A stretch of 35,776 bases of DNA, taken from the NCBI GenBank assembly GCA_018303265.1, contig JAGVYN010000013.1:1-35776 (forward strand), written 5' to 3'. Every line of letters starts with the position of its first letter. Position 1 is the stretch's first letter. The translations under genes were made by a program, and so were the position numbers. Below are positions 4,086 to 28,469 of this stretch, piece after piece. This DNA comes from Candidatus Woesearchaeota archaeon. Its GTDB lineage: Archaea; Nanobdellota; Nanobdellia; Woesearchaeales; GW2011-AR9. The notes beneath the pieces were generated by a model. That model had not been told where the DNA came from. It was given only the letters and a program-made list of their open reading frames with translations, and made no database searches.

Positions 4086-5234
4086 CTACGAATTGAGGAC
4101 AAATTGGCCGATGGATGATTCCTTTCCCTTCTTTATTGCTGTCGCGGAGAAAGCATAATCACCCCCTTCTTCTAAATAAACACTTTCCAGAAGATAAAAT
4201 ATTCGACCATCACAAAGATAGGCTTTTCCCTTTTCTTTCTGTGAACATTGCTCCACAGCCGTACGAATTTCATCCCGCAGGAACGAAACTTTCTCCAAAA
4301 AGCTGCCTGCCGCTTCGAAAATAATAATATCCTCCGCTGAACCGGTGTAGTCCAGCAAACGCAAGTCATTGGTAAAATAAATAGTGTAGCTTTCAGCAGA
4401 CAGGTCATCAGGAAAAGAGATCTCAAAGAGGTTCGTATTGACAACTCCTTTTGCTTCAATATCTTCGATGGGAAACGGTTCCGTGGGAGTGAAGTCAAGA
4501 GTAAATAGGTATAATGCGGGAGAAGACAGTTGGGTTGCAGAACTCACAACGCAAAATGGTATCTGCCGTCCTTCCGAAGGGAATTCTTCCTCATCACAGG
4601 ATGCATATTTCCAACCAGCGTTTCTTGCGCCATCCACGCATTCTTGAAGATTTCTTTTGTTTCGGCACGCTTTAATAAGGCGCTGGGCTTCGGCTGTAAG
4701 TTGATCATACTCAGCAAAAGAATAACCTACGTCAACGCTAAAACCATTTTCAAATGTATACGTGCCGTGGTTCGTTTTTATTGTTTCTGCGCTTCCCTTG
4801 CCGAAAAAGAAGGTGCTGCTGTAGCCGATGTCAGTGAACGTCTTGCCTGCAAGGCGTAAAGCAAGTTTTTCCTGGGCTTGGGTAATGACTGCATTCTTTA
4901 CGTCCGGCAAACACCACTGTTCTTCTTTGTTCCAGAAATTTCGGCCCTTGCTCCTTCCGCACCCTGATGATGTTTCGGGAGGAAAACCGCCATTCGCAGC
5001 CAATTCCACGGCAATTTCCTGACCAATATTTTTGGCTATGATGTCGTTTTTCAACAATACTTTCTGCGCTTCAAAATAACCTTCCTTGAGAAAGGTAACC
5101 ACCCATTCCCCCTTCACGCCCGGAGTTACGCTGCTTTTGATGCTTAACCCTAAAAAGACAATAAGTCCTGCCATGATGAGGAGAACACCCCAATGCAAAA
5201 TTCCCCCGTGCCGATTCATCTTTTGCTTCTTCAT
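4086..5234 (-). CDS. Pilin-like surface protein with N-terminal anchor and C-terminal Fn3-like region
   Basis: MNRHG|GILHWGVLLIMAGLIVFL (variant class III leader); Cys-rich middle; YTIYF...YAFSATAIKKGKES resembles an Fn3 end. Confidence 0.6.
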   Translation of the reverse strand: MKKQKMNRHGGILHWGVLLIMAGLIVFLGLSIKSSVTPGVKGEWVVTFLKEGYFEAQKVLLKNDIIAKNIGQEIAVELAANGGFPPETSSGCGRSKGRNFWNKEEQWCLPDVKNAVITQAQEKLALRLAGKTFTDIGYSSTFFFGKGSAETIKTNHGTYTFENGFSVDVGYSFAEYDQLTAEAQRLIKACRNKRNLQECVDGARNAGWKYASCDEEEFPSEGRQIPFCVVSSATQLSSPALYLFTLDFTPTEPFPIEDIEAKGVVNTNLFEISFPDDLSAESYTIYFTNDLRLLDYTGSAEDIIIFEAAGSFLEKVSFLRDEIRTAVEQCSQKEKGKAYLCDGRIFYLLESVYLEEGGDYAFSATAIKKGKESSIGQFVLNS

Positions 5235-5240
5235 TTTGGA

Positions 5241-5666
5241 CTACCGCAATACTTTTTCCACACACCCTTTCTGTTCTTCCAACCAGACACACCTGTTACC
5301 GGCGATTTTCACTGTATCAGTGAGGCAGTCATTGCTGTCAATGTAATCATGACAAGAAGTGATAACCTTTCCTCCCAATACTTTGCTGTTCTTAATTTTC
5401 TCATTCAAGTCGACTCCTTCCAGGTTCTCTCCTGCCTGCATCTCCATGCGAAGATTGAGCAAGGCTGATTCTATTTGCTTAAAACTTTCAAAATTTTCAG
5501 TGGCCCCTTTTAAAGACCCTTTTGACGCTATGAATAAGAGGATGCCAACAAAGAAGATAAATACAATCGATAAGAGAAGAATCAAAAAGAGATCCTGTTC
5601 ATTGATGCTGGCAGCCTGCGCCTTCTTATTGAAATGAAGCGGTTTCAGGCTTTGTCCTATTTTCAT
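5241..5666 (-). CDS. Class III signal peptide (pilin-like) protein
   Basis: KKA|QAASINEQDLFLILLLSIVFIFFVG; C-terminal 4-Cys module. Confidence 0.7.
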   Translation of the reverse strand: MKIGQSLKPLHFNKKAQAASINEQDLFLILLLSIVFIFFVGILLFIASKGSLKGATENFESFKQIESALLNLRMEMQAGENLEGVDLNEKIKNSKVLGGKVITSCHDYIDSNDCLTDTVKIAGNRCVWLEEQKGCVEKVLR

Positions 5667-6130
5667 CTGCTCACCTTTTGAACATAGATCACGAGAAGAT
5701 CTTTTTCTACCATACCTTCTCTCTTAACAAGCACTTCTTTGAAAATGGCAAAATCATCTTTGTAAGCATACTTATCGGTAATCGCTTCCTGGCCGCTTTT
5801 TTCCAGTTTCAATCTGAAATTCAACGATTGTATCCCTTGAAGCGCCTCACTCTTGTAGCACGTGCTAAATCCCTCGTTGGTAAACTTGTCAAGGTCAATA
5901 ACACCGGGAACGACCTTTCCCGTAGTTTCATCTTGAAAAGCAAAACATTCAGGGATGGTGGTAAAACGCAAGGAGATGAGTTCTGCTTCCAATCGGGGAG
6001 GAACTTCAATGACGGTATTGATGAACGCCTGAATTGTAAAGCCCAGAATAAACAGCAATACGGTAAAAATCCCTGTAACCACGGTCCAAATGATGATTTC
6101 TGACGTTGCCGTTTGCCCCTTACGATTCAT
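5663..6130 (-). CDS. Class III signal peptide (pilin-like) protein
   Basis: MNRKG|QTATSEIIIWTVVTGIFTVLLFIL; overlaps both neighbours. Confidence 0.75.
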   Translation of the reverse strand: MNRKGQTATSEIIIWTVVTGIFTVLLFILGFTIQAFINTVIEVPPRLEAELISLRFTTIPECFAFQDETTGKVVPGVIDLDKFTNEGFSTCYKSEALQGIQSLNFRLKLEKSGQEAITDKYAYKDDFAIFKEVLVKREGMVEKDLLVIYVQKVSR

Positions 6131-6530
6131 TCTCTGCACATCCTCGTAAAATTACTCTCTTTTTTTTCTTTTCTAAACACACGGCTGATTCTTTCTCCGC
6201 GACACCTTCCCCCGTATATCCCTCAGGTAAAAAAAAGGAACGGCGCAGCCATTCCTGTTCCGGCTCTCCTGGCTTAAATAGAATAACACTTGTTGAATCA
6301 AGAACCAAAGAATATTCCGATAAATTACGCGGATACGTGACAACCGCATCACCAGGCAAGGCAGCCAACGTATTGACCATCATCGAAACGTCATCAATGG
6401 ATGTTTGCTTGAAAATAGTATCTTTCTTCGCAAAAGCCATCCCTTTACTGATGGCCAGAAACCCCACCAACAGAACAAACAGTACTTTGATGACAAAAAC
6501 AGGGCTGATGAAAAATCCTTTTCGGTTCAT
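6120..6530 (-). CDS. Class III signal peptide (pilin-like) protein
   Basis: MNRKG|FFISPVFVIKVLFVLLVGFL. Confidence 0.7.
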   Translation of the reverse strand: MNRKGFFISPVFVIKVLFVLLVGFLAISKGMAFAKKDTIFKQTSIDDVSMMVNTLAALPGDAVVTYPRNLSEYSLVLDSTSVILFKPGEPEQEWLRRSFFLPEGYTGEGVAEKESAVCLEKKKKRVILRGCAENES

Positions 6531-7183
6531 TGTTGTGGTTTTGGTGATTTAACTGGATGTAATATTGGTTTCTCAGGAATGGTGCAGGGTGGATTTTGAC
6601 AGACGTAAATAACCTTCCCTTTCTTGATCATCTGTACTTCAAAGCGTTTTGTTCTCGTTTCATAGTTTAACCACGTATTAAAATCTATACCATAAATATA
6701 ATAGTTGGGGGAAATTTCAATACATCTCATTTTCGTGGGAGTGACTGTCTTGATCTCTCTCTCTTCACCGCAGAATGTTCCTTCTGTATCTGTTTCTTCA
6801 AGAGTATATTCTTGAACCAAGCAGATACAATCATTACCCCCGCATTTGTCTTGCGGGCCGAGCCAATGTTCTTCAACATCATCAGTAGTACAAAAAATTG
6901 CCTCATTTATATACGAGCTCCAGAAATTTAACACTCGTGTGCCAGGATCAAGAATCAATAAAGATGTTTTTGGCTCTCCTTCCCTTCCTGTTTCCCCTAA
7001 CGTCTGGATATCACTGACAAACTTGTCGAAACTATCTTGGCCTTTTGAGAGTAAACCGACATACTTGACAGAGCAGGAAATAAAGGTAACGAGAATGATA
7101 ATAGCCAAGGCTAAACCAACCAATTCCTGAGCTGATAGAATGAACGCTCTTTTTGTTTTTTTGATTTTTTTTATTGGTTTCAT
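6527..7183 (-). CDS. Class III signal peptide (pilin-like) protein, Cys-rich
   Basis: KKTKRA|FILSAQELVGLALAIIILV; CGGNDCICL motif. Confidence 0.7.
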   Translation of the reverse strand: MKPIKKIKKTKRAFILSAQELVGLALAIIILVTFISCSVKYVGLLSKGQDSFDKFVSDIQTLGETGREGEPKTSLLILDPGTRVLNFWSSYINEAIFCTTDDVEEHWLGPQDKCGGNDCICLVQEYTLEETDTEGTFCGEEREIKTVTPTKMRCIEISPNYYIYGIDFNTWLNYETRTKRFEVQMIKKGKVIYVCQNPPCTIPEKPILHPVKSPKPQQ

Positions 7184-7259: not shown

Positions 7260-8741
7260 CTAGGACCATTCCCTATTTTTACAGACATATCGTTTATTGT
7301 CAATAACGAGCGGCGCAAGATCATTGGCAACATCACAGCGATGCCAGAAATTCTCTTTGCAAATTAACGAGCCTGATGTTTTTGCTTTCCATTTGTAATC
7401 TTCGTTAGTAAAAACTTCCAGCGCGTCTGCATCTGAATCAGCAAATGTAGATGTAGGAGTTAATTGTTTTTCTGTCCTATAATCAATGACTTCTCCTTGC
7501 TTAAACGCTCCAGCCCCAATATCACTGCGCCCTCCTCCTGTTCCTTCATGTTGTGCAACAAAAATCCAACATTGGCCTTCGGCAGCTACGGTCTGTGGCA
7601 AACTACCACTTACTCCATAATATTTATACTTTTTAGAACGATCCTGCACACATTCTTCAAAACTCCCTTTACCACTTTTCGCGAAAATTTCACATTCCCA
7701 ATCAATAGATCCCCCATCCGTTCCGTCATCATAGACCGCTTCAATTTGAAATTTTTGGAATGATTCGAATGTTCCTTGATTCACCACATCAAGCAGGATA
7801 AAATACTCATTATTATCTTCCTGCGGTTCTGCAAGTTTCTCGGTGGAATCAACATGAATTTTAAGATAGCATTCGCTGTGGCCAGGGTTATCACAAAGAT
7901 CTGCTTCACTGCCCAACTGCAGATATACTTTAGGCGTTATTTCTTCATCGATGCCCAATCCCGTTGTGTATTCAATATTAATTTTAAACTTCGAAAGATC
8001 AATGAAAGCAGAAGGATCTTTCCATATGTTCTCTAAATCTGAACTGGAAACGTCGGAGGGGTCGATTTCATACAACTTCTTTTTAACACAATTTTTTTGA
8101 AGGATATCGCAGACAGAGACTGTTGTGGTAAATGAATGTGAGATGGCCTTTGGCCCTTTATTTTTAATGGTGGGAGCCACTTCAATCCATTGAAATACCT
8201 TGCCGTTAAAATCAAAAAAATATTTTTCTAACCCTTTTGATGCTCCTTCGGCTTGAAGATTGGCGTCAAGAACAGCGAGATCGCTTTCGACTTCAATTCC
8301 CTCTGGTTTAGCTTGCACGGGCGCGAGGGTTTCTTTTGCTTCCTGGCATTTTGTTTTATATTTCACATCGCAATCTTCCTTCTTCTTGGCATCGCATTTC
8401 TCAACAAACGTTCCCGGATTTTTCTCGGAAGGATATTGCAAACACGTCTTGCGGTCATTTTCCGCTTCATTGGGATCGGTAAGTGTTTTGGGACAGCCTA
8501 AGAATGCCGTGGAGGTATGTCCTTCCCCCTTGGTTGAGATGCATGGGCACTTATCCAATTTATTAAAAACGCCGTCAGAATCGCAATCTTCACTGTATGC
8601 TTTTGCTTCCGCACCGATACCTTCTATCCCTAACTTAATTTTTGAAAGAGCGGGACCGCCATATGCTAGTAAAAGAAGAACGCCGAGGATAAGGGAGATA
8701 ATTATTGAAATCATCTTGCCACTGACCCCTTTTTTGTTCAT
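7260..8741 (-). CDS. Pilin-like adhesin with TSP3-like Ca-binding motif, CARDB-like domain and Cys-rich C-terminal domain
   Basis: MNKKG|VSGKMISIIISLILGVLLLL; DCDSDGVFNKLDKCP; SDLAVLD...IKNKG...VDSTEKLAEPQEDNN (CARDB-like). Confidence 0.65.
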   Translation of the reverse strand: MNKKGVSGKMISIIISLILGVLLLLAYGGPALSKIKLGIEGIGAEAKAYSEDCDSDGVFNKLDKCPCISTKGEGHTSTAFLGCPKTLTDPNEAENDRKTCLQYPSEKNPGTFVEKCDAKKKEDCDVKYKTKCQEAKETLAPVQAKPEGIEVESDLAVLDANLQAEGASKGLEKYFFDFNGKVFQWIEVAPTIKNKGPKAISHSFTTTVSVCDILQKNCVKKKLYEIDPSDVSSSDLENIWKDPSAFIDLSKFKINIEYTTGLGIDEEITPKVYLQLGSEADLCDNPGHSECYLKIHVDSTEKLAEPQEDNNEYFILLDVVNQGTFESFQKFQIEAVYDDGTDGGSIDWECEIFAKSGKGSFEECVQDRSKKYKYYGVSGSLPQTVAAEGQCWIFVAQHEGTGGGRSDIGAGAFKQGEVIDYRTEKQLTPTSTFADSDADALEVFTNEDYKWKAKTSGSLICKENFWHRCDVANDLAPLVIDNKRYVCKNREWS

Positions 8742-8830: not shown

Positions 8831-9634
8831 TTACGATTCGAGGCCTTGCGTAAAACAACCGCCGGCTTCAGCAGAGGCTAAGTTGTCAATTCCGATGGTG
8901 CTCACGGGACGTTCTTTATCATTGTAAAAATCGGTTTTGCTGAAAGCCGTATTTACTCCCCATATAATTCCCACAGGCGGGAGCAGCACTCTCACTGCCG
9001 TCTTCCCTGCCGTCACCCATGTCGAATCCTCTTTCTGTCTGGACAAATAAGTTACGGCATAAATATGTCCTGGCTCAAGAGTGTCTAAGATGGCAAGGTA
9101 TCCCTGTCCGCCATAACCTTGGATATAATCGAGATATTTCATCCCTTTTATCTTATGATGATCCTTTTCAACCATGTAATCAAACATTTCTTTGGCAGGA
9201 ATCTCTCCTTCTTCGATCGCCCGCGGTAAGGTTACAGTATAGCAAAGGAAACATTTGTTTGGACCAAGACCAAATAAAGTAGAAACCCTTTCTGGAGGAA
9301 GTACATCATCGTGCCGGCCTTCATTAAACATTGCCCAGCAGTTGGCCATCAAATGTGCAAGCTGGCCTTTAATCTCTTCACGGCTCCCACCGATTTCCTC
9401 ATCCTGCGTCTGGCAGAGGAGCGGGCCCCAGTTTAAATCCGTAACCCCTATATCTATAGCCGTAGATGTGCGCGCAATAACACTGGCGCGGCAGATACTT
9501 TCCACAGATTTATCTTCCGCCTCGGCAAAAAAAACATATAAGAACCCTCCGACGGCTAAAAAGCTCATAACCACACCTATCAGTAAGACGAGTTGGCTGA
9601 CAATCCCTTTTTTATCTTTCTTTCGGAGGAACAT
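8831..9634 (-). CDS. Class III signal peptide (pilin-like) protein
   Basis: KKDKKG|IVSQLVLLIGVVMSFL; ICRASV...PLLC...MANCWAMFNEG...CFLCY. Confidence 0.75.
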   Translation of the reverse strand: MFLRKKDKKGIVSQLVLLIGVVMSFLAVGGFLYVFFAEAEDKSVESICRASVIARTSTAIDIGVTDLNWGPLLCQTQDEEIGGSREEIKGQLAHLMANCWAMFNEGRHDDVLPPERVSTLFGLGPNKCFLCYTVTLPRAIEEGEIPAKEMFDYMVEKDHHKIKGMKYLDYIQGYGGQGYLAILDTLEPGHIYAVTYLSRQKEDSTWVTAGKTAVRVLLPPVGIIWGVNTAFSKTDFYNDKERPVSTIGIDNLASAEAGGCFTQGLES

Positions 9635-9644: not shown

Positions 9645-10445
9645 TTAGGAACACCGTTGCAGTTTTCCTTCCGCTACTTGTCGGGGAATGGATGTTTCCC
9701 CTTGCGGATCTTCTCCTAAATAATCATCGTCAAGCCCATCAGCATCACTCCCACCATCGACCGTAGGAAAAAAACAGATGTGCTTGTTATCAGGGGTATA
9801 AAGATAACCGGCATCTTCAAAATCTTTAAAGCCGGTACCAAAATCAATCCTGTTCTCAGACAATCCTCCGTACCCTCCATCGTCATGCCTGATGGTAATC
9901 GAATTCACTGGGTTGTAATGCTCTTCTTCAATTATTTTTATTTTTTCTTCCCAACTTTTTTCATTAAGGAAACTTTGTTCAAAATTGCTCGTAACTTCTG
10001 AACTTCCGGCAATGACGCAGGGAGCCATGTTCTCAACAGAAAAATGAAGATTGGGATCGGTAACAAGCTGTTTTCCCCCTGCGCTGCCATACACGGAAAA
10101 CGACGTTGTGCCGGCATTGCCATCGTACTCCATAATTAATGATGTGCCGCCCTCTTCACCAAGCTCTGAAAAGCCCCCGTACGATGCAAAACAGCGGCCG
10201 TTGCTGGCCAGCATTGTCTTGATCGTCTCTTGCAATTTCAGAATCTCCAGCCGATGTGTTTCTGGAATGGAAGCTGCGCCAGCGGAAACTTCTTCCCCTT
10301 TTTCAGGAAGAAGGGATTTTAATGCCGACGTAAACGATTCTTTGATTTCTTCTGTAAGCCCTGTCTCAGGACCAAAGAGAAAAAATACCAAAACGCCGAT
10401 TAACAGCCCAACCAGAACTATTTCGATCAAGAATTTGATTTCCAT
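9645..10445 (-). CDS. Pilin-like membrane-anchored protein lacking the basic leader
   Basis: Starts MEIKFLIEIVLVGLLIGVLVFFLFG 1 nt after the upstream stop; the rest is a soluble domain with Cys residues. Confidence 0.6.
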   Translation of the reverse strand: MEIKFLIEIVLVGLLIGVLVFFLFGPETGLTEEIKESFTSALKSLLPEKGEEVSAGAASIPETHRLEILKLQETIKTMLASNGRCFASYGGFSELGEEGGTSLIMEYDGNAGTTSFSVYGSAGGKQLVTDPNLHFSVENMAPCVIAGSSEVTSNFEQSFLNEKSWEEKIKIIEEEHYNPVNSITIRHDDGGYGGLSENRIDFGTGFKDFEDAGYLYTPDNKHICFFPTVDGGSDADGLDDDYLGEDPQGETSIPRQVAEGKLQRCS

Positions 10446-10446
10446 A

Positions 10447-10650
10447 TTACAACCCTAAAATATTTTTTCCCAATTCGATCATCTTCTCGCGAAAAAAAAG
10501 AAAAATGAGCGCGGCAATAACCAGCAGAAAAATAGCTGCTAACACTATTTTACCTAGATCTTCCACGACAATAGCTTTTTTCTGCCATGTTTTTTTATTT
10601 TCCCCTATTTTGAGAGCTTTCTTCACCGCCATGCTTTTCATCTCTTTCAT
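10447..10650 (-). CDS. Small class III signal peptide protein
   Basis: QKKA|IVVEDLGKIVLAAIFLLVIAALIFLFF; mature part about 40 aa. Confidence 0.7.
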   Translation of the reverse strand: MKEMKSMAVKKALKIGENKKTWQKKAIVVEDLGKIVLAAIFLLVIAALIFLFFREKMIELGKNILGL

Positions 10651-10664
10651 CGGCTCCTACCCCT

Positions 10665-10784
10665 TTACGGTCCCCCGGCCGTGCCTGCTCTCCACAAGAT
10701 ATACCCCACAATGAGAGCGCCAAGAATGAGGAGGAGCAATACCACGAGCTGCTCGACTTGGACGAGACCTTTTTTTTTGTTCAT
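10665..10784 (-). CDS. 39-aa micro-pilin (not in the ORF track)
   Basis: Hand-translated as MNKKKG|LVQVEQLVVLLLLILGALIVGYILWRAGTAGGP*. Fills the gap between two pilin genes on the same strand; class III leader with E at +5. Confidence 0.75.
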   Translation of the reverse strand: MNKKKGLVQVEQLVVLLLLILGALIVGYILWRAGTAGGP

Positions 10785-10852: not shown

Positions 10853-11116
10853 TTATTCTTCGGCAAAACAACAGATTTCTTTAGCTGCTCCTGCGCCTTG
10901 GTTTTCTTCCGCGGGACATTGAAACGTCAGTGATCTTCTGTATCCATCAGGACATTCCGGGTCACATGAGCCCCCTTTACTTTCGCAATCAAACAAGCCA
11001 AGTTCCGCTTTTCCTTTCTGTTCCCTGAACATAATCAATAATAGAATCATGACCAGCAAGGCCATCGCCATGCCAATAATAATCCACCACATGTTCGCAT
11101 CTGCTTTTCTGTTCAT
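10853..11116 (-). CDS. Small Cys-rich pilin-like protein
   Basis: MNRKA|DANMWWIIIGMAMALLVMILLL; CESKGGSC...C...C...CC. Confidence 0.8.
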   Translation of the reverse strand: MNRKADANMWWIIIGMAMALLVMILLLIMFREQKGKAELGLFDCESKGGSCDPECPDGYRRSLTFQCPAEENQGAGAAKEICCFAEE

Positions 11117-11133: not shown

Positions 11134-11463
11134 TCAGCTGAAACAGTATCTTTTCCCATTAAATATGTCAGTTGAACATTGCTCACCAGCATCACAGGCT
11201 TTGTCAATGTCGTTGCATTCTTTTGGTGAACCAAAACAACACGTCTGCTCTTTTGCACAATCGAATGCCGGTGATGAAAACGTCCTTGCGGGACAGGCAC
11301 TTTTTTCACCAACACAAACGCCGCCCTTGCTTTCGCATCCTGAAACGCCCACACCAAACTTCCCGGTTTTGCCGGTAAATAATACCATCAGCACGATCAA
11401 GACAATTAAAGCGAGGACTGCACCGATAATGATCCACCACATGTTAGCGTCAGCTTTTTTCAT
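11134..11463 (-). CDS. Small Cys-rich pilin-like protein (paralog of 10853-11116)
   Basis: MKKA|DANMWWIIIGAVLALIVLIVL (ATG 11463); CESKGGVC...C...C...CC plus an extra 4-Cys module. Confidence 0.8.
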   Translation of the reverse strand: MKKADANMWWIIIGAVLALIVLIVLMVLFTGKTGKFGVGVSGCESKGGVCVGEKSACPARTFSSPAFDCAKEQTCCFGSPKECNDIDKACDAGEQCSTDIFNGKRYCFS

Positions 11464-11504
11464 GATTTTATAGACCACCGGATCCCTTTAAACACAGAGT
11501 GCAT

Positions 11505-20900: not shown

Positions 20901-21269
20901 ACAGCATCCTGCTGTACACCATAACTCGTATTCTTCATCAGAAACAGCCTGCCCTCCCACTTCCTTGGACGTACAGAATCCGGCGGGATGAGTTAGGCAA
21001 TCAATGTTGCAGGTTACGGGAACGCACTCGCTTAACGCGGAACAGCTTTGGGAAATAACATACGTTTTTTCGTCACATTCAGGATCATCCGCGCACTGGG
21101 CTTGAGCATCTTCATCATATTCTACACAATACAAATCATCGAGAAAGGTGCCAGCAATGTCGGTTCGGGGATAAAGTATACAAGAAGCTTGGGAAACCAC
21201 GAAAGAAGACAGCAATAGTAAAAATACACTTAAAACTACTACAATCATCCCTCTTTTTTTTACTACCAT
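14946..21269 (-). CDS. Giant (2107 aa) single-pass cell-surface adhesin-like protein
   Basis: N-terminal KKRG plus hydrophobic signal; Cys-rich N-domain; three carboxypeptidase-regulatory/CnaB-like beta repeats (ITASAAGY, YQITASKIGY, HTIAATYQDY); Fn3-like segment; long Cys-rich block; Ig-like repeats ending D..PP/AP; DxDxDG Ca-binding repeats; C-terminal TM followed by a basic tail of about 150 aa. Confidence 0.85.
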   Translation of the reverse strand: MVVKKRGMIVVVLSVFLLLLSSFVVSQASCILYPRTDIAGTFLDDLYCVEYDEDAQAQCADDPECDEKTYVISQSCSALSECVPVTCNIDCLTHPAGFCTSKEVGGQAVSDEEYELWCTAGCCKIPTTPTSYCSFLSNKYLCDQKADQSGIANYDFYNPTGLTKEQCASQYCKVEIQTATLTVSVNTEEGQPIAGASVMLKSAGLEKKTDSLGVVTFTGLSPKTEAITASAAGYVSEMLTLSLNPGQSAEQKFTLVVKGTATISGVIKDVKSNLLAGSTLSWTGPESGFVTSTDGSYSIEVSPGEYQITASKIGYSADKKTISVAAKDALTLDLVLTATIPQGVQGTAYVDVNGNNQPDDGETTYGVKLYVDGVFKGYSQFPDGDFNLEIATTGEHTIAATYQDYVSEKKTITVLADQTVSQNVLLIRLVGECTEPGTEKDVGSLVVSPVPGKEQLKVEWVKPCPEVIGYTLQRVKGATVEKSFEISPFTNSFIDTTVSWGEEYTYQIAALYDKGRKSNPVSSNTINVGNQACEGKYHDNSGWETFCLVGTEEERKQVWTCNDQNLLTAWLCEGEYSYCAKISPRQASCKNAAVCSLGGDPFGLYYVEEMCYGTNDPSGGKAANYCYYDSTTSIINQCKSCTQIESCFDYQSKDACEINSCLTKNCQWVDSAEESLLVDYSLINLNLPGLVTQETGAGYCVEENYEKDDKCSLCGPDSPPSTLFENFYCTAEVCSSLGRCFSAPGLTSCQNCGETPTAERNCYTYETELECTGGQSVQKGADNQFTFSSDQCGWQRCLWQGSSNGAGASCVKDGNGDALDDCAGFIGSELAACRNDVSPPRTELSSQPTLSLAFSNLTFTGDDSFHEHAGQRNPLGSLWFCLTKEEANAPSICSQFKEVLYPGKLQKESVTVNIVGSLEEKTKAAGDTYRLQFYSTDKFLNQEALQEAFVLIDNVPPEFNIQETIDTVGEITTLTAYLEGTTELMSCTFTLTPVLPSGSSQIRSISREEKEKQAIFENLDGIVYTLEAACTDDQGNKNTKKKSYTFDVEKRIDIVYPPLQGAVAEQEVVFKIHTLAPASCALYDAATKQKLRDFTITDDVGKEHETEPLPLPEEREYVAEQEVLCKELLTGETYNPDYFHFFVDRTAPKTQVLLREEQREEQPTSLEWEEFFVNTVAVDFECAEETGFGCEETYYCLEENSAECEFFIPQRYTQYVETVLLTNSTRLCYYSTDSAGNLPLQVVCGKVLIDGYGLVMEKPPQHYYQNTLWGVSDKPVFDWQFFTKIPTKECRFDFVPGFNYDATPPHRTRTANEEKKYLFQNFPESVFTSFKEDEIKTVYVQCKNNEDELGPEQKIILEYDPTSPKVTDAHAEPDEVFEGVTTTLFVTTDDKTICRYSDTGHTTYETMSFSFPGADEKILNKEHKDTYTLNYVGDTGIKDYLLNVQCKNGAGVLSEVEEIQVHVDYTKAGFIRSLNPSGFIGTKNVTLSVQTSKNAVCEYKFSDKSFSNNKSFSNKSSTPSYLPFATGAGTTVHTAPLPVLEEKEHVIPVKCQVGDQPEPLSEQIVFTVDLTPPVITAVDDGTFTCGNNNLKIIANSQEKSIAGYYYELYDIGSTLSSAAPAFTISPFTTSPTTSPFTSSLSTSLNISGKNSSSPIFVGDEAGEILVRNGTIGKNSSFTIFVGDLDAGRTYKVKVLAQDEAGNVGVFKDSDGFTIISKNDSRCAVDEVPVVTFTTDAETCTDVSLQMSCDSSVGCNEWKYGTHSSAELCLPAQEYNGQKISFTNDGAVCYYVVDNAGKNWSGVKETPFNDADGDHISDSCDECPSTDAGKIANEIGCADGQVPANQKFLDNDGDGLPNVWEGDFNALNCQLDSQNKDTDGNGKSDAEEDYDGDGYTNLREYSSGLNPCLADAPTLEVPLVTEEQALTLTMLLAWVFLLLGLLLLLGGSGYLIYYYLYSPQAKVPARPVVRGLPGVQVPGQPSLVKKTWRDQFTQLQKMREEKRKEKKRQELFAAFGKQSAQIPHVAEILQKKAPHLPRLDELAHRYQQDKAKISPGLRPEEKDIFSKLENIARQTEQKKIEEVVSKDEAKDIFTKLKEISKKRKEGAS
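16720..16772. repeat. Degenerate tandem repeat encoding KFSDKSFSNNKSFSNKSS
   Basis: ACGATTT core recurs three times at 15-18 nt spacing inside the giant gene. Confidence 0.55.
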
Positions 21270-21382: not shown

Positions 21383-23917
21383 TTATCGGCATAAGCCATC
21401 AGGTTGGCATGTTCCTTCAAAAATGCCATCAAAATTATTATCGCATACGTTTCCTGCCGTACGATCTTGTTCTGTACATTCACAATGAACTTGAAGTGCT
21501 TCATCATTCGTGAAAAAATTTGTTTCCGCTCGAAGATTCATGTTATACAAAGTATCTTTGGCGACAGGGGCTCCAATCTCGGCCACGACTGGACCAGCAC
21601 ACACGCTAGAGCAACCCATTTTTCCATGACACCAGAGGTCATTCTGGCCATCATTATTAGAATCAGAAAAACCCCAAGCGAGTTGATCGTAACATTCTTC
21701 AACCACTTTATCACAGCTAAGGGATGTATCTTTGTTTCCGCAGCGCAATTCGTCATTCCATAACTGGGATTTTCGAAGAGTAGGATTCCCACAGATGTTC
21801 CCCCTTTGCCCGTCACAGTAATCTAATTTTTGTTCAAGAAGATACCCCTCATTGCCGGAGAGTGCGGTATATTCAGGAATGTTCCCTTCACAATCAGGAA
21901 GAGGACTCTCGAAACAGGATGTTCCTGCAGGGGCAACATCCCATTTGCCAGGAATTTCAGGAGTTCCCACACAACAAGTATGAGTCGCTTGAAATGGATT
22001 GGCAGTTTTTTCTATCTCTTTAAAATGAGTATTCCCTTCTTCATCAAATTCATACGTATACTCGTGATATGGATACGCCCACGGATTTGTGGGGTTTTTA
22101 TGTGGAACACAAGCGGTGACAGAAACAATGGCCTCTGCGCTTTGTGATTGGGCAAACGCACCACAATAATTTAGGTTATAATCAAGAACAAGTTTCCCTA
22201 AAACAAGCTCCCTGAATGGATGAGTGGTGAAATATGCCCGATCAAGAAAGTTTTTGAGATCCTCACCTGTTTCCGGCTGACCACCGCCTATTTTTTGTGG
22301 AATGTTCAGTGTTGTTAACTTCGTGCCAAGTTCGTCAAGGGGTGGTTCTGTCGTGGATGTTTCTATCGGAAAAGTAAACTCCTGGCCAGCAGCGATGTAC
22401 TGTAAAGATATTTCTTCAAGATCCTCAGTAAGGGAACTCTGCGGAAAGGTGACCTCAAGCGTGATGGGATCTTCCCGGGAAACAAAATAGACGCCCGAAT
22501 CAAACAGGTTTACATCTTGATAAATTGATTTTAAATCAAGATTCATGGTGATCGGTCGATCAACTAAAACGCGAACGGTTTGGGTATCTTCAAGATCTTC
22601 ATCCGCTGCTTTAGCGATGATCTTATACCACCCAGGGTTTCCAACTTCACGGGTGAAAAAAACATTGCCAAGAACATTGTCAGGATAAGTGCTGTCTTTA
22701 GTAAAATCCTCAGAGACAAAATCATACTCTACTGCATCTTCATCCGGATCTGAGGCATTTGCTACGATATTAATTTGGCCAAATTTCTCATCACCCGGAA
22801 TAACTAAATAATCATAACTTTTTTCTGGATTCCCGCCAAGAAGACACTGCGAACGGTGCACATAATCTAAAGCCGGAGGACGATTTTGACGCGCAATGCG
22901 AAATGTATACGGCTTATCTTTGACAATGTGAGGGACATCGCTGAAGATGAAGAAATCATCGCCTTGTTCCAAAGGAAGAATCTTTAAATTAAGATTCAGG
23001 TTTTTGTATTTTTCAAATGGCAAACTTCGCTTGCAAAGGTAATAGCCTTCCTGCGGCTCGCATCCTATAAATTGCTGTGTATTTCCATATTCAAAAAAAG
23101 GGCTTCGGAGGATCGCATCCGTATACTGAAAGTCGACAAATTTCTGATCATGCTCTAAAGGGAAGAGGATAGCGCTGTCCAATAATTGTTTAAATTTTGT
23201 GGGATGAAAGAAATCAAATTCGGAGAGTTGAAAAAATTCTTGATCGGCAAGCCGGAATTTCAAAGGATATGACACCTGGACGCTGATTCCTTCATCCAAG
23301 ATCGCCAGCTTCAGATCAATATCGGTTTCTTCAACTTTAGCTGTCGCAGAGATGTTGATGGCGACAAAATCTGTAACACAACTTACAGTTTGCTCGATAA
23401 GATATCGTTGCAAATCACTCTGGATTGAACCAGCGCGCAGCTCCAGTCCGCCAAATCCGACCGTGATATCAGGATATGTATATTGGCAAAATTCAGGAGC
23501 ATTTTCATCAGTAGCGCAGGGATACGCTTCCGGATACTGAAACGGTTCTTCTCCGCGTGTAATCCCATAAGCGATCTTCTCCTCATCCGGCCCGTAGGTG
23601 ATGCCCGTGATCCCCTCAGAGAAAGAAGTTAAGCCGCCTTGATCTTTCCAGATACGTCCTTGCTTTCCCAGCAAAATAAGCCCTTTTTCAATGCCATCAG
23701 CGAGGCAATCTTCAACGAAAATACGAAGAGCTTCTTTCTGGAACACCTTTGACAGAACTTTCTCCTGCTCGGTTTGCAGCTGTCCTTTTCGAAGCTGATT
23801 TGTCAGCATCAGAATAGAGAGAAAAATGAATAAAATGAGGATCCCGACAATTATGAATATAGTTATTTGAGCCCTTTTGGAGGAAACCCTATTTCTATCG
23901 CGCTTCTTTTTCCCCAT
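21383..23917 (-). CDS. Large class III signal peptide adhesin with Ig/PKD-like and Cys-rich domains
   Basis: KRA|QITIFIIVGILILFIF; FVEDCL...GKQG; NRPPAL...ANASDPDEDAVEY (Ig-like); Cys-rich C-terminus. Confidence 0.8.
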   Translation of the reverse strand: MGKKKRDRNRVSSKRAQITIFIIVGILILFIFLSILMLTNQLRKGQLQTEQEKVLSKVFQKEALRIFVEDCLADGIEKGLILLGKQGRIWKDQGGLTSFSEGITGITYGPDEEKIAYGITRGEEPFQYPEAYPCATDENAPEFCQYTYPDITVGFGGLELRAGSIQSDLQRYLIEQTVSCVTDFVAINISATAKVEETDIDLKLAILDEGISVQVSYPLKFRLADQEFFQLSEFDFFHPTKFKQLLDSAILFPLEHDQKFVDFQYTDAILRSPFFEYGNTQQFIGCEPQEGYYLCKRSLPFEKYKNLNLNLKILPLEQGDDFFIFSDVPHIVKDKPYTFRIARQNRPPALDYVHRSQCLLGGNPEKSYDYLVIPGDEKFGQINIVANASDPDEDAVEYDFVSEDFTKDSTYPDNVLGNVFFTREVGNPGWYKIIAKAADEDLEDTQTVRVLVDRPITMNLDLKSIYQDVNLFDSGVYFVSREDPITLEVTFPQSSLTEDLEEISLQYIAAGQEFTFPIETSTTEPPLDELGTKLTTLNIPQKIGGGQPETGEDLKNFLDRAYFTTHPFRELVLGKLVLDYNLNYCGAFAQSQSAEAIVSVTACVPHKNPTNPWAYPYHEYTYEFDEEGNTHFKEIEKTANPFQATHTCCVGTPEIPGKWDVAPAGTSCFESPLPDCEGNIPEYTALSGNEGYLLEQKLDYCDGQRGNICGNPTLRKSQLWNDELRCGNKDTSLSCDKVVEECYDQLAWGFSDSNNDGQNDLWCHGKMGCSSVCAGPVVAEIGAPVAKDTLYNMNLRAETNFFTNDEALQVHCECTEQDRTAGNVCDNNFDGIFEGTCQPDGLCR

Positions 23918-23969: not shown

Positions 23970-26900
23970 CTAACTTACCCTTACCTTTCCCGTCAGCTGC
24001 GGCCACAGGAGATCGAGATTAGAAATGGCTTCCACGTGCTGGATTGCCTCTTGTTGTATGCAGCTAAGTTGCTGCTGGCCGGCAGCTTCTTCTAACAGTT
24101 CGAGATCTTCAGGAAGATTAACATGAGTTACATATTCACAGACGGGCGTTTCAAAATTTTCATATTCCGCGATGAGGGTTTGTTTTTGAGGGGAAAATAC
24201 CTCGCGCACGGCACGAATGAATTTTTCGTCTTTTTTCAACAAGTAGACATCACGGAAATTTTGTACTTCTGCTACAAAGATTGATTCTTGTGAAAGTTCA
24301 CTTTCGACACCAAATAAATTCTTGATTTTTTCCCATACTTTTTCTACCAAACCAGGTTCCAGCGAAAAGCCTTCTTTTCCGTAGATAACAGCATTTAATT
24401 TTTGAGAGTACCACAAGTCGCCTTTGACGGCCGTTCCTGTTACATCGCATTTTACAAACTCATTTTCTCCGGATGGAGGGCATAACACTTTAATCTTGCC
24501 TTGAGGAATGCCTAAAGCCAGGAAAAAAGAATCCGGGTCGGTAATGTCCCTGTTTAACGTCGTGGCAAAGGACGTCTTTCCTTTGTGCTGCAAGACACAG
24601 AAATTGTTGACGCAGGTGTTTTCTTTTTCTGGAACGAGCCTCGCCCCTTCTTTGTCGAGAAGGGCATCAAAACAGACCGTCGTTACTTCCTGGCCGCCTG
24701 GGCTTCCTAACGTTTCGGCTAATCCGACTTTTCCCGCAGCGGCAACTTGCTTGATCCCTTCAAGATAATTTTCTTTTCCTGCTGTTTCCAGCTCAGCCTC
24801 ACGAAGGGAGGTGCAATACAGAACAAAATCATCATCACCGGCAACATTCACAAGCTCTTCAGCGACAAATTTTGTCCGTGACGTCCAGTTCCCTGCCTGA
24901 CAATAATTATCAAAAACATACTCGCCGGAATTAATACAAGAAGGATATTCTCCTTGATAAAAATCAGCCGTCGCCGCGTCAACGCTGGCGCTTTCCGTGC
25001 TGAGGACGAAACATTGATCTTCGCTATTGCAGAAACCGCTTTTTTCACGATTCCAGTCCTGTTTCAAAGGCTGGTATTTCCAGATGCCTTGGACACAGCG
25101 ATAATTGCGGTCATCGGGGAGATGTTCCACCAGCGCGGAGGCGCTCATGTCTTCAACACAAGCGTAGCCGTTCCAACAGGAATTTTGAGAACAGCAAGCT
25201 GCCCCGGAACGGGCATCAAAACCTGTGAGAGAAGGCTGGGACTTGTAATGATAAGGGGATTTTCCTTGGTTATCAACATATTGAAGCAGGGGTTGGAAGA
25301 TAGTGCAGGAATTAGATGTCCCTTTAAATTCAACGACAAGATATGAAGCATCGGCTGTACTAAATTCTGGCGGCGAAGCAATATTCCTGTTGCCATCTTT
25401 GTCAACAAGTGTTATTTGAATGTCAGAGCAGCTTCCGTTGTGGGAAAAGGATACATTCGTATTTTTTCCGATGGCAATTCGTTCAGACCGCAGTATCTCG
25501 CCATTATTAAGAGTTACTTTATTTTGAACAATTTTTTCTTTCTCATTCTGGACGGCAATTCCATCCGCTGCAAGAATATCCCAATGGGGAAGGATCTTCC
25601 CATCCAATCTAAATTCAGCATTGGGGAGAAAGTTTTGCCCGGGAAAGGCAAACGTGGAATAATTGCGCTCGCCGGCAGCAACGGATTGGTCTTTCAATGG
25701 GAATGGCAAGTTGGAAAAAAATGTGGTGAGATCGGACGTATCAATTTCTCCAACAGCATAACCAACTTTGGTTATCTCTTCAGCACTCCACGAATTGATG
25801 GTTGTAAAACGTTCTTTGTTTATTTCATGATCAACACTGTAGGAACAAAATGCTCCCCCCTTCACAGAACAATACGGAAGGTTGTTTTCTGGGTTTATTT
25901 TATTAATCCCTTCCAGAAAACTTGCGGCTTGGCAGCCATAAAAACCTTGATCGACATTCCCCTCAGCATCTTCTTCATTGACAAAAATGACTTGCTGGGC
26001 AGCTTTTTTCACTTTCACGTTCGCATCTTTATCGTACGTATTTGATGAGCCTACAGGGATCTCTCCTTCATTCGTAACAAAATAGAGTTCATACAAATCA
26101 GGGTTGGGATTGGTTACAGTGTAGAACGGTTCTCCAGGAAGTGGATACACACATTCTACATTCCCGCTGCAGGAATATTCCGGTTCCCAGGTTTTGCCTT
26201 GACTATTTACACTAAACTTAACATTCATTGTCGTCTCGCCAGGCGCGATTGGCTGTGAGTTCCAGCAGCCGTAATTATCCCTGGAATCATCTGCATAATA
26301 TTCTTTATCATCATTGCCGCAGCAGCGGCGGGCGGGAGCAACTACTTCTTCATCTCCCAGCCAGGCTATTCCTTGATATGCTGGATCGTCCTTAAAAAAA
26401 GGATCGTATAGAGCATTGCATAATTTTTCGCCGCTGATTTTATCTCCTTTCTGCCAATAATCCAAATCCGTCAGCCAAGAGCTTTTGCCCTCATCACTGC
26501 TATATTCGCCGGAACATATTTGCGGCTTTTCTCCCGAAGTAAGATAAGCATTCCTCACTTCAATCTCATTCTTTTCAGGAGAAGCGTCAATCCTCATGAA
26601 TTTAACATTGACCATCTCTGAAATTGGCACTTTAACATGAATCCAGCGATTCTCTTCGAGGACAGGATTGTTAGCAGCATAGCCTAGAACGCTGTCGTCA
26701 AAATAAACAACATTTTTGCCGTCATCCTGTTTTGGACCAAAGATGCTTAGCCGCACATTGGTGGGAACATCTTCTTCGAGATGAGTAAAACGAACATAAA
26801 ATTCAAGATAGGTCTCACCAATGAAGTCTGTTGGAGAATCTTCATAATAATCGGAATATACTTTGTCTAAATCAATCAGAACTTTGTTTGCGGGCATTGC

Positions 26901-28469
26901 ACTTATAATGGGAAGAGAGAACAAACCATCCCCTGGTTTTCGTTCTTTTATCCCATTGAATGAAAGCTGGATTGGTTCATTAGGATCGCGGCAATCTGCC
27001 CAGCTCCAACGGTTTCCTTCTTTGTAGCAATAAAATCTGTTAGCATTCGTGATATCATCTGGAAAAATTAAACCCGTGGAAATTTCTTTCGTTCCTTCTT
27101 CATTCTTACATTCCACCCACTGCTGGCCGTTGGCAACAATGTCATATGCTTCTTGCTCTGGTTTTTTTATGGTGAAGATATGGAACTTGGCATCTCCGTC
27201 ACTTTTTACCCAGCACCATTCACCAGCGCAGCGGTCGGGAGAACCGTCAGGCTTTTCACTGGGCCAATCTGGAATGTCTCCAACTCGACCAACCAACTCC
27301 GGCTTTTCATTATTCAAACAAATAAAATTACCTGGAAGATTGCCTGCTGTGCCGGAAGCGATGTTTCCGAAGTCAGTCAGTGGATCAGTTTCATTATCAT
27401 CACCGCAGCAATTGTTGTTGCCTGTGTTGGAGTTTATCCACGAAAATGATTTATCAAATAAATTTTGATCAGCATTAACACAGGTTTCCTCATTTTCATC
27501 CGGATCATCAATGCTGATGCCATCGCAATTGTTATCAATCCCATCACCGGCGAATTCTTTCACTCTGGGGTTGATGCAAATAGCACATTGCGAATGTTCA
27601 GGATAGTCGCAATCTTCAGGCCCTTCTACATCTTTACAAAAAGAAGGATCAACGGAGGGATCATCTTTGCAATCAACAGCTTCCAGAAAGAAATCACGAT
27701 CACGATCAACACCCGCTGGTTTCCAGAGAGGGATGTCAAATTCATCAAGAGTGCAGTTGTACATCTGGCCATTGGCCCAGGTGATGGTGTTTAATGAGCC
27801 GCTTTTTCCATCCTCGCCATCCACACCTGCTTCACATTTATGCCAGAATTTGTCATAGGCGCAGATGTGAGGGTAATCTGTCTTAAACAAAGAGTAAGTG
27901 AAAGATAAAAATGCGTCACCTCCAGCTTCATCACATTGGAAAAGAATGTTAGAAATCTCGCTAGTATGATCTAAGAGTTTTCGTTCAGAATTAAAAATAA
28001 CCCCCTCTTTTACTATGCCAGCTGCACCATCACTAGTATCGCTGGTATCCCGCTCTTCAATCAAAACCCAACATCCACTTCCTTCAGTTATCTGGTCCTG
28101 GGGCGGTTTAACTAATTTCGAACCAAAATTACATTCTTTTATATTTGATTTCCCTTCATTTAATGTAATAAGTCCTCGATGCCCTTTGCCTTCGTCTATA
28201 ACATCCATAGAAGTATAATCATAAAGTCCGGATGTGGCTAAATCAGTGTCTTTAAAACAATCCAACACATCAGAACCATAATCACATCCGCCATGCGCAG
28301 CAGGAGCTTCCACACTTTTTCCTAAAGCGGCGAATTTGTCTGTATTAGCAACCAAGCCTTGTGAAATACTTGGTTCTGGTTCTCCGCCTTCTTCTTGAGA
28401 AAAAGAAATTAATGCGAAGAGTGAAAAACAGACTACAATGAGTAAAAACATCCCTCTTTTTGTGTTCAT
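23970..28469 (-). CDS. Large (1499 aa) secreted Cys-rich surface protein
   Basis: MNTKRG|MFLLIVVCFSLFAL; DCKDD...CINP...E..GDGIDNNCDG (putative metal-binding, MopE-like motif); two CCG(D/N)D motifs. Confidence 0.8.
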   Translation of the reverse strand: MNTKRGMFLLIVVCFSLFALISFSQEEGGEPEPSISQGLVANTDKFAALGKSVEAPAAHGGCDYGSDVLDCFKDTDLATSGLYDYTSMDVIDEGKGHRGLITLNEGKSNIKECNFGSKLVKPPQDQITEGSGCWVLIEERDTSDTSDGAAGIVKEGVIFNSERKLLDHTSEISNILFQCDEAGGDAFLSFTYSLFKTDYPHICAYDKFWHKCEAGVDGEDGKSGSLNTITWANGQMYNCTLDEFDIPLWKPAGVDRDRDFFLEAVDCKDDPSVDPSFCKDVEGPEDCDYPEHSQCAICINPRVKEFAGDGIDNNCDGISIDDPDENEETCVNADQNLFDKSFSWINSNTGNNNCCGDDNETDPLTDFGNIASGTAGNLPGNFICLNNEKPELVGRVGDIPDWPSEKPDGSPDRCAGEWCWVKSDGDAKFHIFTIKKPEQEAYDIVANGQQWVECKNEEGTKEISTGLIFPDDITNANRFYCYKEGNRWSWADCRDPNEPIQLSFNGIKERKPGDGLFSLPIISAMPANKVLIDLDKVYSDYYEDSPTDFIGETYLEFYVRFTHLEEDVPTNVRLSIFGPKQDDGKNVVYFDDSVLGYAANNPVLEENRWIHVKVPISEMVNVKFMRIDASPEKNEIEVRNAYLTSGEKPQICSGEYSSDEGKSSWLTDLDYWQKGDKISGEKLCNALYDPFFKDDPAYQGIAWLGDEEVVAPARRCCGNDDKEYYADDSRDNYGCWNSQPIAPGETTMNVKFSVNSQGKTWEPEYSCSGNVECVYPLPGEPFYTVTNPNPDLYELYFVTNEGEIPVGSSNTYDKDANVKVKKAAQQVIFVNEEDAEGNVDQGFYGCQAASFLEGINKINPENNLPYCSVKGGAFCSYSVDHEINKERFTTINSWSAEEITKVGYAVGEIDTSDLTTFFSNLPFPLKDQSVAAGERNYSTFAFPGQNFLPNAEFRLDGKILPHWDILAADGIAVQNEKEKIVQNKVTLNNGEILRSERIAIGKNTNVSFSHNGSCSDIQITLVDKDGNRNIASPPEFSTADASYLVVEFKGTSNSCTIFQPLLQYVDNQGKSPYHYKSQPSLTGFDARSGAACCSQNSCWNGYACVEDMSASALVEHLPDDRNYRCVQGIWKYQPLKQDWNREKSGFCNSEDQCFVLSTESASVDAATADFYQGEYPSCINSGEYVFDNYCQAGNWTSRTKFVAEELVNVAGDDDFVLYCTSLREAELETAGKENYLEGIKQVAAAGKVGLAETLGSPGGQEVTTVCFDALLDKEGARLVPEKENTCVNNFCVLQHKGKTSFATTLNRDITDPDSFFLALGIPQGKIKVLCPPSGENEFVKCDVTGTAVKGDLWYSQKLNAVIYGKEGFSLEPGLVEKVWEKIKNLFGVESELSQESIFVAEVQNFRDVYLLKKDEKFIRAVREVFSPQKQTLIAEYENFETPVCEYVTHVNLPEDLELLEEAAGQQQLSCIQQEAIQHVEAISNLDLLWPQLTGKVRVS

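Follow-up and report, generated by a model that had tools for sequence, protein, structure and literature searches.

What does a row of 20 consecutive genes encode when most of its products begin like prepilins and the DNA around it holds neither an assembly ATPase nor a platform gene? The question was raised by a contig of Candidatus Woesearchaeota archaeon (assembly GCA_018303265.1, contig JAGVYN010000013.1, here contig C35 of genome G000). This whole contig, 35,776 bp long, is called the window below; it belongs to a genome of 866 kb in 50 contigs, estimated to be 83% complete. The row, at positions 4086-28469, is a real, conserved and very divergent type IV filament (T4F)-like locus. Because most of its proteins are built like pilus subunits and relatives keep the row, its probable product is a filament apparatus of the cell surface with a central part in the life of these archaea. 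Our preferred interpretation, which we hold to be probable, is that the cluster consists of chromosomal, vertically inherited genes for the subunits of a very divergent T4F-like surface apparatus of Woesearchaeota-type DPANN archaea.

Exactly 20 consecutive minus-strand open reading frames (ORFs) of 39 to 2107 amino acids (aa) occupy the row (Table 1), with intergenic gaps of at most 113 bp and four overlapping gene pairs. A preliminary description of the window had reported the same 20 adjacent genes, tightly spaced or overlapping, and the 17 N-terminal motifs that it quoted all occur in the translations as written. Its statement that the C-terminal domains are rich in cysteine (Cys) is true of the giants (78 Cys in the 2107-aa, 53 in the 1499-aa and 26 in the 844-aa protein) and of several small proteins (10 and 18 Cys), but not of six of the 20 proteins, which have just 0-2 Cys. 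Because ORFs were called mechanically (greedy, longest ORF), the true leader may in some cases be shorter than the one given here.

About 17 of the 20 proteins start in the same manner: a short basic leader is followed by K or R, then by G or A, and then by a hydrophobic stretch of about 20 residues. A crude rule, namely an N-terminal hydrophobic window with [KR][GA] at most 12 residues upstream, was applied to greedy ORF calls over the whole genome (1186 ORFs, 205 of them with an N-terminal hydrophobic window). It was passed by 14 of the 16 scorable cluster ORFs, a figure that takes in the two giants with Sec-type signals described below, versus 38 of the 189 such ORFs in the rest of the genome (Fisher p = 8e-8); the 382-aa protein failed for the sole reason that it reads RHG. 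The [KR][GA] motif alone is not specific, since it is present in those 38 ORFs outside the cluster, and this frequency is what could favor an artefact or chance, i.e. a row of unrelated membrane proteins whose N-termini look alike through the positive-inside rule. Such an explanation was refuted by the enrichment, by the column-by-column conservation of the motif and by synteny across 57 loci and one further order; confident structure models also speak against it, and we give it practically no credence.

Conservation of the site was evaluated in alignments of orthologs. Position -1 of the 391-aa family (66 sequences) is G in 36 and A in 30 cases, and +1 is Q in 66/66. Likewise, Q occupies +1 in all 54 sequences of the 176-aa family (-1: G 27, A 19, S 8), together with an E at +3 in 54/54, and in all 55 sequences of the 175-aa family (-1: A 27, G 22, S 6), together with an E at +6 in 55/55. 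The 188-aa family (50 sequences) has G in 23, A in 23 and S in 2 cases at -1 and a mixed +1, and an alignment of small pilins (20 sequences) has G in 15 and A in 5 cases at -1 and Q at +1 in 13 of the 20. Residue -2 is mostly K or R and the hydrophobic stretch begins immediately after the site; upstream of the site, both length and sequence are free to vary among orthologs, the leaders in the cluster being 4-26 residues long. The free exchange of small residues at -1, combined with an invariant +1, points to a peptidase recognition site and not to a plain membrane anchor. Judged from these alignments, the cluster signals are conserved signals of class III (prepilin) type, their cleavage itself being predicted. 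The class III pattern attributed to the row by the preliminary description thus stands for about 17 of the 20 proteins; it does not for the 2107-aa and 1499-aa proteins, which are of Sec type, nor for the 266-aa protein (9645-10445), which has a plain anchor. Downstream of the signal, hhalign aligned the 175-aa and 176-aa families over just 34 N-terminal columns (probability 91.7%), and the 188-aa and 391-aa families reached a probability of 8%. According to these profile comparisons, an N-terminal module is common to the cluster proteins and their heads are unrelated.

Distribution among relatives was assessed by tblastn of the window proteins against 40-kb regions of 10 relatives (8 from the same family, 2 from other families; counts in Table 1), which are non-independent samples. 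The whole row and the same flanks are collinear in 8/8 same-family relatives, and the two genomes of other families share the part that runs from the small pilins up to and including the 1499-aa gene. The 139-aa and 114/87-aa proteins are paralogs, and a single hybrid gene takes their place in two other families of the order. Conservation is patchier for the variable members of the set, namely the 141-aa and 493-aa genes and the neighboring 360-aa gene (1/10 relatives each) and the 218-aa gene (4/10). The 67-aa and 39-aa ORFs are real genes: 8/8 same-family relatives carry two ORFs of 37-73 aa between their 266-aa and 114-aa orthologs, each with a [KR]G motif and a single hydrophobic helix with a short tail, matching the two ORFs of the window.

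Four of the genes (12025-14939) form a core that reaches further. The order giant/188-aa/391-aa/175-aa/176-aa is kept in 47 further loci (27 of the same family and 20 of other families), with the giant present in 42/47, the 188-aa gene in 43/47, the 391-aa and 175-aa genes in 47/47 each and the 176-aa gene in 44/47. Conserved gene order, a comparison that the preliminary description had called for, was thus borne out at both levels. A reduced version of the cluster was found in a complete 737-kb genome from another order of the class (G145:C1). Its first member is a class III protein resembling the 844-aa one; a Cys-rich Sec protein of 1143 aa comes next, then homologs of the 188-aa and 391-aa proteins and a second Cys-rich giant, of 1019 aa. 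The 175-aa and 176-aa homologs close the row, and two inserted genes, small and unrelated, stand between the second giant and the 175-aa homolog at joined coordinates 23978-24915 (L114/L115). On the scale of the phylum, a profile of the 391-aa family matches 252/301 sampled genomes (250/299 without the unpublished G261 and G262), the weakest of these matches possibly resting on the N-terminal helix alone.

Table 1. Genes of the row at 4086-28469 and its neighbor at 28539-29621, in coordinate order. A slash marks the predicted class III site; numbers such as +1 count residues after it.
Product	Position	Strand	N-terminal region	Orthologs	Remarks
382-aa pilin-like	4086..5234	-	MNRHG/GILHW, then hydrophobic stretch; orthologs NKKG/AxxHW	7/10 relatives (tblastn), all same family	no Pfam or NCBIfam family
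141-aa pilin-like, variable member	5241..5666	-	KKA/QAA; hydrophobic stretch begins about 10 residues past site (atypical)	1/10 relatives (G022)	
158-aa pilin-like	5663..6139	-	RKG/QTATSE, then hydrophobic stretch	8/10 relatives	overlaps next gene
136-aa pilin-like	6120..6530	-	RKG/FFI	7/10 relatives by tblastn, 8/10 by blastp	
218-aa pilin-like	6527..7183	-	KRA/FIL; orthologs KKG/IML, KKG/FMW	4/10 relatives	9 Cys
493-aa pilin-like, variable member	7260..8741	-	KKG/VSG	1/10 relatives (G022 only)	18-Cys acidic head; weak TSP_3 and CARDB matches, below Pfam cut-offs
267-aa pilin-like	8831..9634	-	KKG/IVS	8/10 relatives	
266-aa acidic protein, not class III	9645..10445	-	transmembrane anchor; no [KR][GA], orthologs likewise	7/10 relatives	
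67-aa (longest ORF) tiny pilin-like	10447..10650	-	QKKA/IVVEDLG, transmembrane segment, short tail		no globular head
39-aa tiny pilin-like	10665..10784	-	KKKG/LVQVEQ, transmembrane segment		no globular head
87-aa small Cys-rich pilin-like	10853..11116	-	RKA/DANMWWIIIG	9/10 relatives	paralog of 114-aa protein
114-aa small Cys-rich pilin-like	11134..11478	-	KKA/DANMWWIIIG	9/10 relatives	10 Cys; candidate abundant subunit
139-aa small pilin-like	11505..11924	-	NKG/QGFSLNVIIVA; segment highly conserved	10/10 relatives	candidate major subunit
176-aa core pilin-like	12025..12555	-	KRA/QMEIMG; Q+1, E+3, G+6 invariant	10/10 relatives, 44/47 further loci	overlaps 175-aa gene by 4 bp
175-aa core pilin-like	12552..13079	-	KRA/QIHMTE; Q+1, E+6 invariant	10/10 relatives, 47/47 further loci	
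391-aa core pilin-like	13154..14329	-	KRG/QTEITFNW	39/41 relatives; 252/301 sampled phylum genomes	
188-aa core pilin-like	14373..14939	-	KKG/LGIGQVF	10/10 relatives, 43/47 further loci	
2107-aa giant surface protein, not pilin	14946..21269	-	Sec-type signal	homolog upstream of core in 42/47 loci	CarboxypepD_reg domains (E = 2.5e-26)
844-aa large pilin-like	21383..23917	-	KRA/QITIFIIVGIL	10/10 relatives	26-Cys acidic head; multi-copy family in genome
1499-aa giant secreted Cys-rich protein	23970..28469	-	Sec-type signal, no other transmembrane segment	9/10 relatives	53 Cys; no Pfam family
360-aa Cys-rich protein, just beyond the row	28539..29621	-	lipobox-like (...FPSC)	1/10 relatives (G022 only)	weak MopE-type match, below cut-off

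Searches by sequence and by structure placed these proteins close to no described pilin. The best 120 of the 274 homologs of the 391-aa protein at E <= 1e-3 are all annotated 'hypothetical protein' and come from Candidatus Woesearchaeota, Nanoarchaeota or Nanoarchaeia archaeon, and the 844-aa protein recovered only 'hypothetical protein' clusters of Woesearchaeota from the ESM Atlas (score 0.85). Pfam searches with the 54 members of the 176-aa alignment and the 20 members of the small-pilin alignment gave no pilin at E <= 1, only transmembrane noise. Models of two core proteins were obtained with AlphaFold2 from our own alignments. The 391-aa protein (predicted local distance difference test, pLDDT, 91.1; predicted template modeling score, pTM, 0.84) has a disordered leader, a helix at residues 25-75, a beta-rich domain and, at its C-terminus, a bundle of helices; the 188-aa protein (pLDDT 91.0, pTM 0.76) has a helix at residues 20-76 followed by seven strands and two short helices. 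As modeled, both have the layout of a pilin 'lollipop', a long N-terminal helix on a beta-rich head. Foldseek comparison of the 391-aa model with the PDB gave no match at E <= 1e-3, and a wide VIA search gave generic helix bundles only (Z <= 9.3, residues 288-391). For the 188-aa model, there was no Foldseek match at E <= 1e-3, and VIA found no pilin or archaellin (best Z 4.0, a PAS-like domain, in the wide search and 2.9 in a second look), which does not imply a difference in fold. The preliminary description had presented the proteins as pilin-like, and neither a pilin family nor a solved pilin fold was recovered by any of these searches. When the 391-aa protein was taken as partner for the globular portions of the other three core proteins (176, 175 and 188 aa), complex prediction gave scores of 0.77, 0.76 and 0.78; the two controls with a replaced partner scored 0.00 and the control with a replaced first chain 0.65, so that the mark was not reached and the outcome counts neither for nor against binding.

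The largest products are of a different nature. The preliminary description had spoken of a row of pilin-like and adhesin genes, a picture that had to be corrected for the 2107-aa and 1499-aa proteins: both are Sec-secreted and not pilins. Their orthologs carry ordinary Sec signals with AxA-type ends; KRG is not conserved (it is missing from G006, G023 and G031), and the KRG/MFL of the 1499-aa protein is part of a Sec-type signal. Most of the 2107-aa protein is an acidic ectodomain (about 1900 aa, 78 Cys), after which come a transmembrane segment (residues 1922-1940) and a basic tail some 167 aa long. Ectodomain, transmembrane segment and a tail of 156-180 residues recur in 8/8 same-family relatives, and the Cys count is 78-80 in the window protein and these eight. 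It is, as predicted from this topology, a membrane-anchored (type I) surface protein with a cytoplasmic tail and not a pilin. Two similar K/E-rich repeats were observed in its tail (residues 1922-2107 region).

These features also bear on an alternative that we take seriously and still consider unlikely, namely that the row encodes a cell-envelope layer. The class III proteins would then be N-anchored surface proteins, either uncleaved or cleaved without building a long fiber, which form a bindosome-like coat or scaffold together with the 2107-aa giant. Sec signal, huge ectodomain, C-terminal transmembrane segment and tail are the topology of archaeal surface-layer proteins, found here in all eight family relatives, and residues 258-437 of the giant give a partial match to an NCBIfam S-layer glycoprotein family (E = 1.2e-11), which at 42.7 bits is far under the cut-off of 1400. 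Additionally, many of the class III proteins are large (382-844 aa) with unrelated heads, core and machinery are conserved like housekeeping genes, and no solved pilin was matched. However, the strict limitation of -1 to small residues, together with a Q that never varies at +1, indicates selection for cleavage by a peptidase and not for a plain anchor, tiny head-less and small conserved subunits are the stuff of filament cores, and a dedicated ATPase/platform pair has been retained.

This pair is encoded outside the window, in which profile searches detected no T2SSE (ATPase) or T2SSF (platform) gene, in agreement with the preliminary description. The genome contains one A24 prepilin peptidase gene (G000:C47:30061-30912; 62 and 59 bits versus a cut-off of 26.5), whose product has a D-containing first motif and a GGGD motif, and A24 peptidases are present in 37/41 genomes. 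The sole T2SSE match in the genome, right at the beginning of its contig (G000:C24:1-1816(-)), scored 56.6 bits, over the cut-off. Its ortholog of about 765 aa occurs in 41/41 genomes (40 relatives and G000) and matches A. fulgidus GspE2 (2OAP, E = 1e-31), FlaI (1e-18) and CpaF (2e-18). It is the only candidate motor, since it is the only T2SSE match in 18/24 same-family genomes and a canonical T2SSF is found in only 4/24 of these, as compared to 14/16 genomes from other families of the order. Relatives have a polytopic protein of about 730 aa beside or near this ATPase. It was found in 39/41 genomes, G000 and G038 being the two without it, and in 298/301 sampled phylum genomes at E <= 1e-10 (296/299 without G261 and G262). 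Its residues 459-583 could be aligned with the T2SSF domain that canonical TadC-like proteins of the relatives contain (probability 92.9%, E = 3.6e-7); the Pfam T2SSF domain itself is weakly matched in 2/4 members (best E = 2.6e-4, below cut-off), and a PDB profile search with the alignment of this protein returned nothing. From its domain alignment, it reads as a divergent platform protein, which in G000 would sit just past the end of contig C24. Thus, the proposed search of the genome for assembly genes located the peptidase and the ATPase, but no platform gene. Co-occurrence of the core family and the platform protein is uninformative because the latter is nearly universal.

Some further observations concern these loci. 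The 730-aa protein (loci L044-L073) is 50-74% identical within the order, versus 25-50% for the pilin-like genes. The neighborhood of the ATPase is conserved (G000:C24:1-8024; loci L039-L043) and includes two small coiled-coil proteins, three tandem paralogous membrane proteins of about 190 aa, a DUF11-like secreted protein of about 475 aa and SepF; these neighbors may belong to the machine as well. On C47, the A24 peptidase gene is immediately followed downstream by two more pilin-like genes. Clear class III-type ORFs outside the cluster were noted in G000 at C15:10933-12267, C15:15882-16913, C31:28309-29502, C43:18100-20082, C45:1-2344 and C47:28598-29994. Several of them have a KRGQ[IV]T[IV]F N-terminus like that of the 844-aa protein, paralogs of which with the same N-terminus are found on C15, C43 and C45, and two are those directly downstream of the peptidase.

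The type of ATPase leaves room for another explanation, which seems improbable to us: a secretion pseudopilus, working as a short piston in the manner of bacterial type II secretion, which would drive the Cys-rich giants, among other proteins, across the envelope. Indeed, the row is conserved and operon-like and mixes several small pilin-like genes with those of large proteins that depend on Sec for secretion; the ATPase most resembles an archaeal protein of GspE type, and it is single, no retraction paralog having been found. Nevertheless, these archaea are not known to have an outer membrane to cross, the class III proteins with large heads outnumber the needs of a piston, and we are aware of no description of such a system in archaea, a point at which our literature searches were not aimed.

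Under the preferred interpretation, that of a T4F-like surface apparatus, assembly could proceed as follows. The A24 peptidase would trim the short basic leader after the G or A at -1, and the ATPase/platform pair would pull the hydrophobic N-terminal helices from the membrane and polymerize the subunits. The small and tiny proteins (10447-11924) may be the bulk subunits of the shaft, and the four order-wide core proteins (12025-14939) may form an initiating (priming) or tip complex. Binding would then fall to modules that the core complex presents or docks to, namely the class III protein of 844 aa and the Cys-rich giants secreted through Sec, with the 2107-aa giant staying in the cell membrane. 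The likely use would be adhesion to a host cell or to a surface, an attribution drawn solely from analogy with the DPANN lifestyle and with the pili of bacteria of the Candidate Phyla Radiation (CPR).

Several observations weigh against this interpretation. No pilin, archaellin or class III family of Pfam or NCBIfam matches any of the 21 proteins, and [KR][GA] also precedes a transmembrane segment in the 38 ORFs mentioned above. D or S at +1, as seen in the MWWIIIG family, is unusual. The two largest proteins of the cluster bear Sec-type and not class III signals, and the 2107-aa giant is unable to ride on an extended filament because of its C-terminal transmembrane segment and cytoplasmic tail. 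As for the machinery, the C-terminus of the ATPase gene is cut by the end of contig C24, and the platform was not found in G000 (83% complete) either with PF00482 or with the protein of the relatives. The ATPase/platform pair is conserved like a housekeeping gene, more than would be expected for an accessory adhesion pilus. Lastly, cleavage, polymerization and binding are all predictions. On the other side, none of the outcomes named beforehand as telling against a filament system was observed, these being type I signal peptides or plain anchors without a pilin fold, a genome with no prepilin peptidase or ATPase, and gene order that differs among relatives.

Comparison with described systems is confined, for the cited reports, to the accessible portions of their text. 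One of the closest parallels is the Epd pilus, or T4F system 1, of Methanococcus maripaludis, in which an ATPase and two platform genes lie inside an 11-gene cluster (PMC13705601, PMC4858521), and system-1-type pilins have been assigned to 1990 DPANN genomes (PMC13705601). Many different pilin genes in one cluster, adhesin-like partners and A24 processing (predicted for the present row) are common to both, and the main Epd pilin lacks a globular head, its counterparts here being the 39- and 67-aa genes. Unlike in system 1, the motor is here on another contig (in relatives, the motor pair is at a separate locus), the platform is a single protein of about 730 aa with a weakly recognizable T2SSF domain, as seen in relatives, and about 17 class III genes are combined with Sec-type giants and have no Pfam pilin match. 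A 2026 census detected T4F components in 2942 DPANN genomes, with ATPase and platform adjacent and pilins scattered; according to the same report, DPANN T4F genes rarely form an ordered locus, and whether a structure is built was left open (PMC13705601). Cognate pilins for nanoarchaeal ATPases had earlier been described as not identifiable (Makarova et al. 2016, PMC4858521).

Runs of unannotated genes of this kind have been noted before. In some DPANN, 'dark matter' genes with signal peptides beside FlaI/TadC were interpreted as diverse pilins with no detectable similarity, and a DPANN-specific secreted family, cls.004306, was noted beside S-layer-like proteins (Makarova, Wolf and Koonin 2019, PMC6393860). 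Those islands resemble the present row in being runs of unannotated signal-peptide genes read as diverse pilins, and the example island differs from it in holding a FlaI-type ATPase and TadC, both of which are missing from the cluster described here. In the accessible text of that report, no mention was found of a conserved order, a four-gene core, the -1/+1 site, Cys-rich giants or phylum-wide spread. More generally, our literature search did not find the supercluster, the four-gene core, the conservation of the site or the Cys-rich giants, some families of which may be listed in supplementary tables or figures.

Three other systems are alike in part. The bacterial type IVa minor-pilin/PilY1 priming module, like GspH-K of the type II secretion system, is an operon with at least four minor pilins and a large Sec-secreted adhesin. 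Its minor pilins have only the N-terminal helix in common, as do the four core genes at 12025-14939, and its adhesin recalls the Sec-type giants beside the core. It differs in that there is no similarity of sequence or fold, the envelope here is archaeal, and one of the giants is membrane-anchored. The Sulfolobus bindosome (Bas) likewise places class III signals on large diverse surface proteins, with few small pilin-like proteins and a dedicated ATPase and platform. The only link is an N-terminal match of the 175-aa protein to NCBIfam BasB (E = 0.048, 13.6 bits versus a cut-off of 230), and, in contrast to the bindosome, no substrate-binding domains were detected by Pfam in the cluster proteins. 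Finally, Saccharibacteria (CPR) use type IV pili in episymbiosis for host binding (PMC9894109, PMC11623550). The likeness lies in the concept of an ultrasmall, host-dependent cell that keeps type IV pilus genes and is a functional analogy only: the system is bacterial, with canonical PilB/PilC/PilA, and has no homology with the families described here.

The surroundings of the row were considered as well. On one side, it is flanked by genes for RadA, an OB-fold single-stranded DNA-binding protein, a YdjM-family membrane protein and a ParE-type toxin-antitoxin pair, and on the other by an RNase P p30-like gene and genes for a PP-loop ATPase and a ThiF-family protein. A mobile element or provirus was rejected as the nature of the cluster, because the guanine-plus-cytosine content of the window is even (0.40-0.45) and the housekeeping flanks are syntenic across the family. 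The 360-aa gene between the row and the RNase P p30-like gene is possibly an accessory gene of the cluster. Among the flanking housekeeping genes, a ParE-family toxin gene (2159-2410, plus strand, E = 1.3e-11) directly follows a small antitoxin-like ORF (1940-2158, plus strand) with weak DUF7557 and VapB matches. The RNase P p30-like gene is apparently split into a 109-aa ORF (29659-29988, minus strand), which covers only positions 123-201 of the PF01876 profile (E = 1.3e-5, below cut-off), and a separate 57-aa ORF before it (30001-30174, minus strand); both pieces are conserved separately in G010, G018 and G022. Near-identical DNA was present in 20 DNA sequencing runs from 12 studies, labeled groundwater or soil metagenomes, and no RNA run was among the listed runs that matched the window.

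DPANN archaea of this group are abundant in groundwater and presumed to be attached to hosts; to our knowledge, the group has no cultured member. For the question of how these archaea may contact their hosts, the locus provides a concrete, conserved parts list: about 17 class III proteins in a fixed order, a core of four genes shared by most of the genomes sampled across the phylum, giant Cys-rich partners and a single, strongly conserved motor pair. The proteins to be sought in metaproteomes and tomograms, and the cleavage site to be expected in them, are thereby named, for pilin-like proteins that current family libraries miss entirely. A bolder proposal, which we put forward tentatively and with more doubt than conviction, is that the supercluster and the near-universal ATPase/platform pair make up a lineage-defining, possibly essential surface organelle of Woesearchaeota/Nanoarchaeota. 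It would be derived from T4F, and its four-protein core and many modular class III subunits would present, or dock to, giant proteins rich in disulfides; the tail of one of these giants would extend into the cytoplasm. If this were true, the row would represent a type IV filament machine of a functionally new class, a device for host contact or feeding and not an ordinary adhesive pilus.

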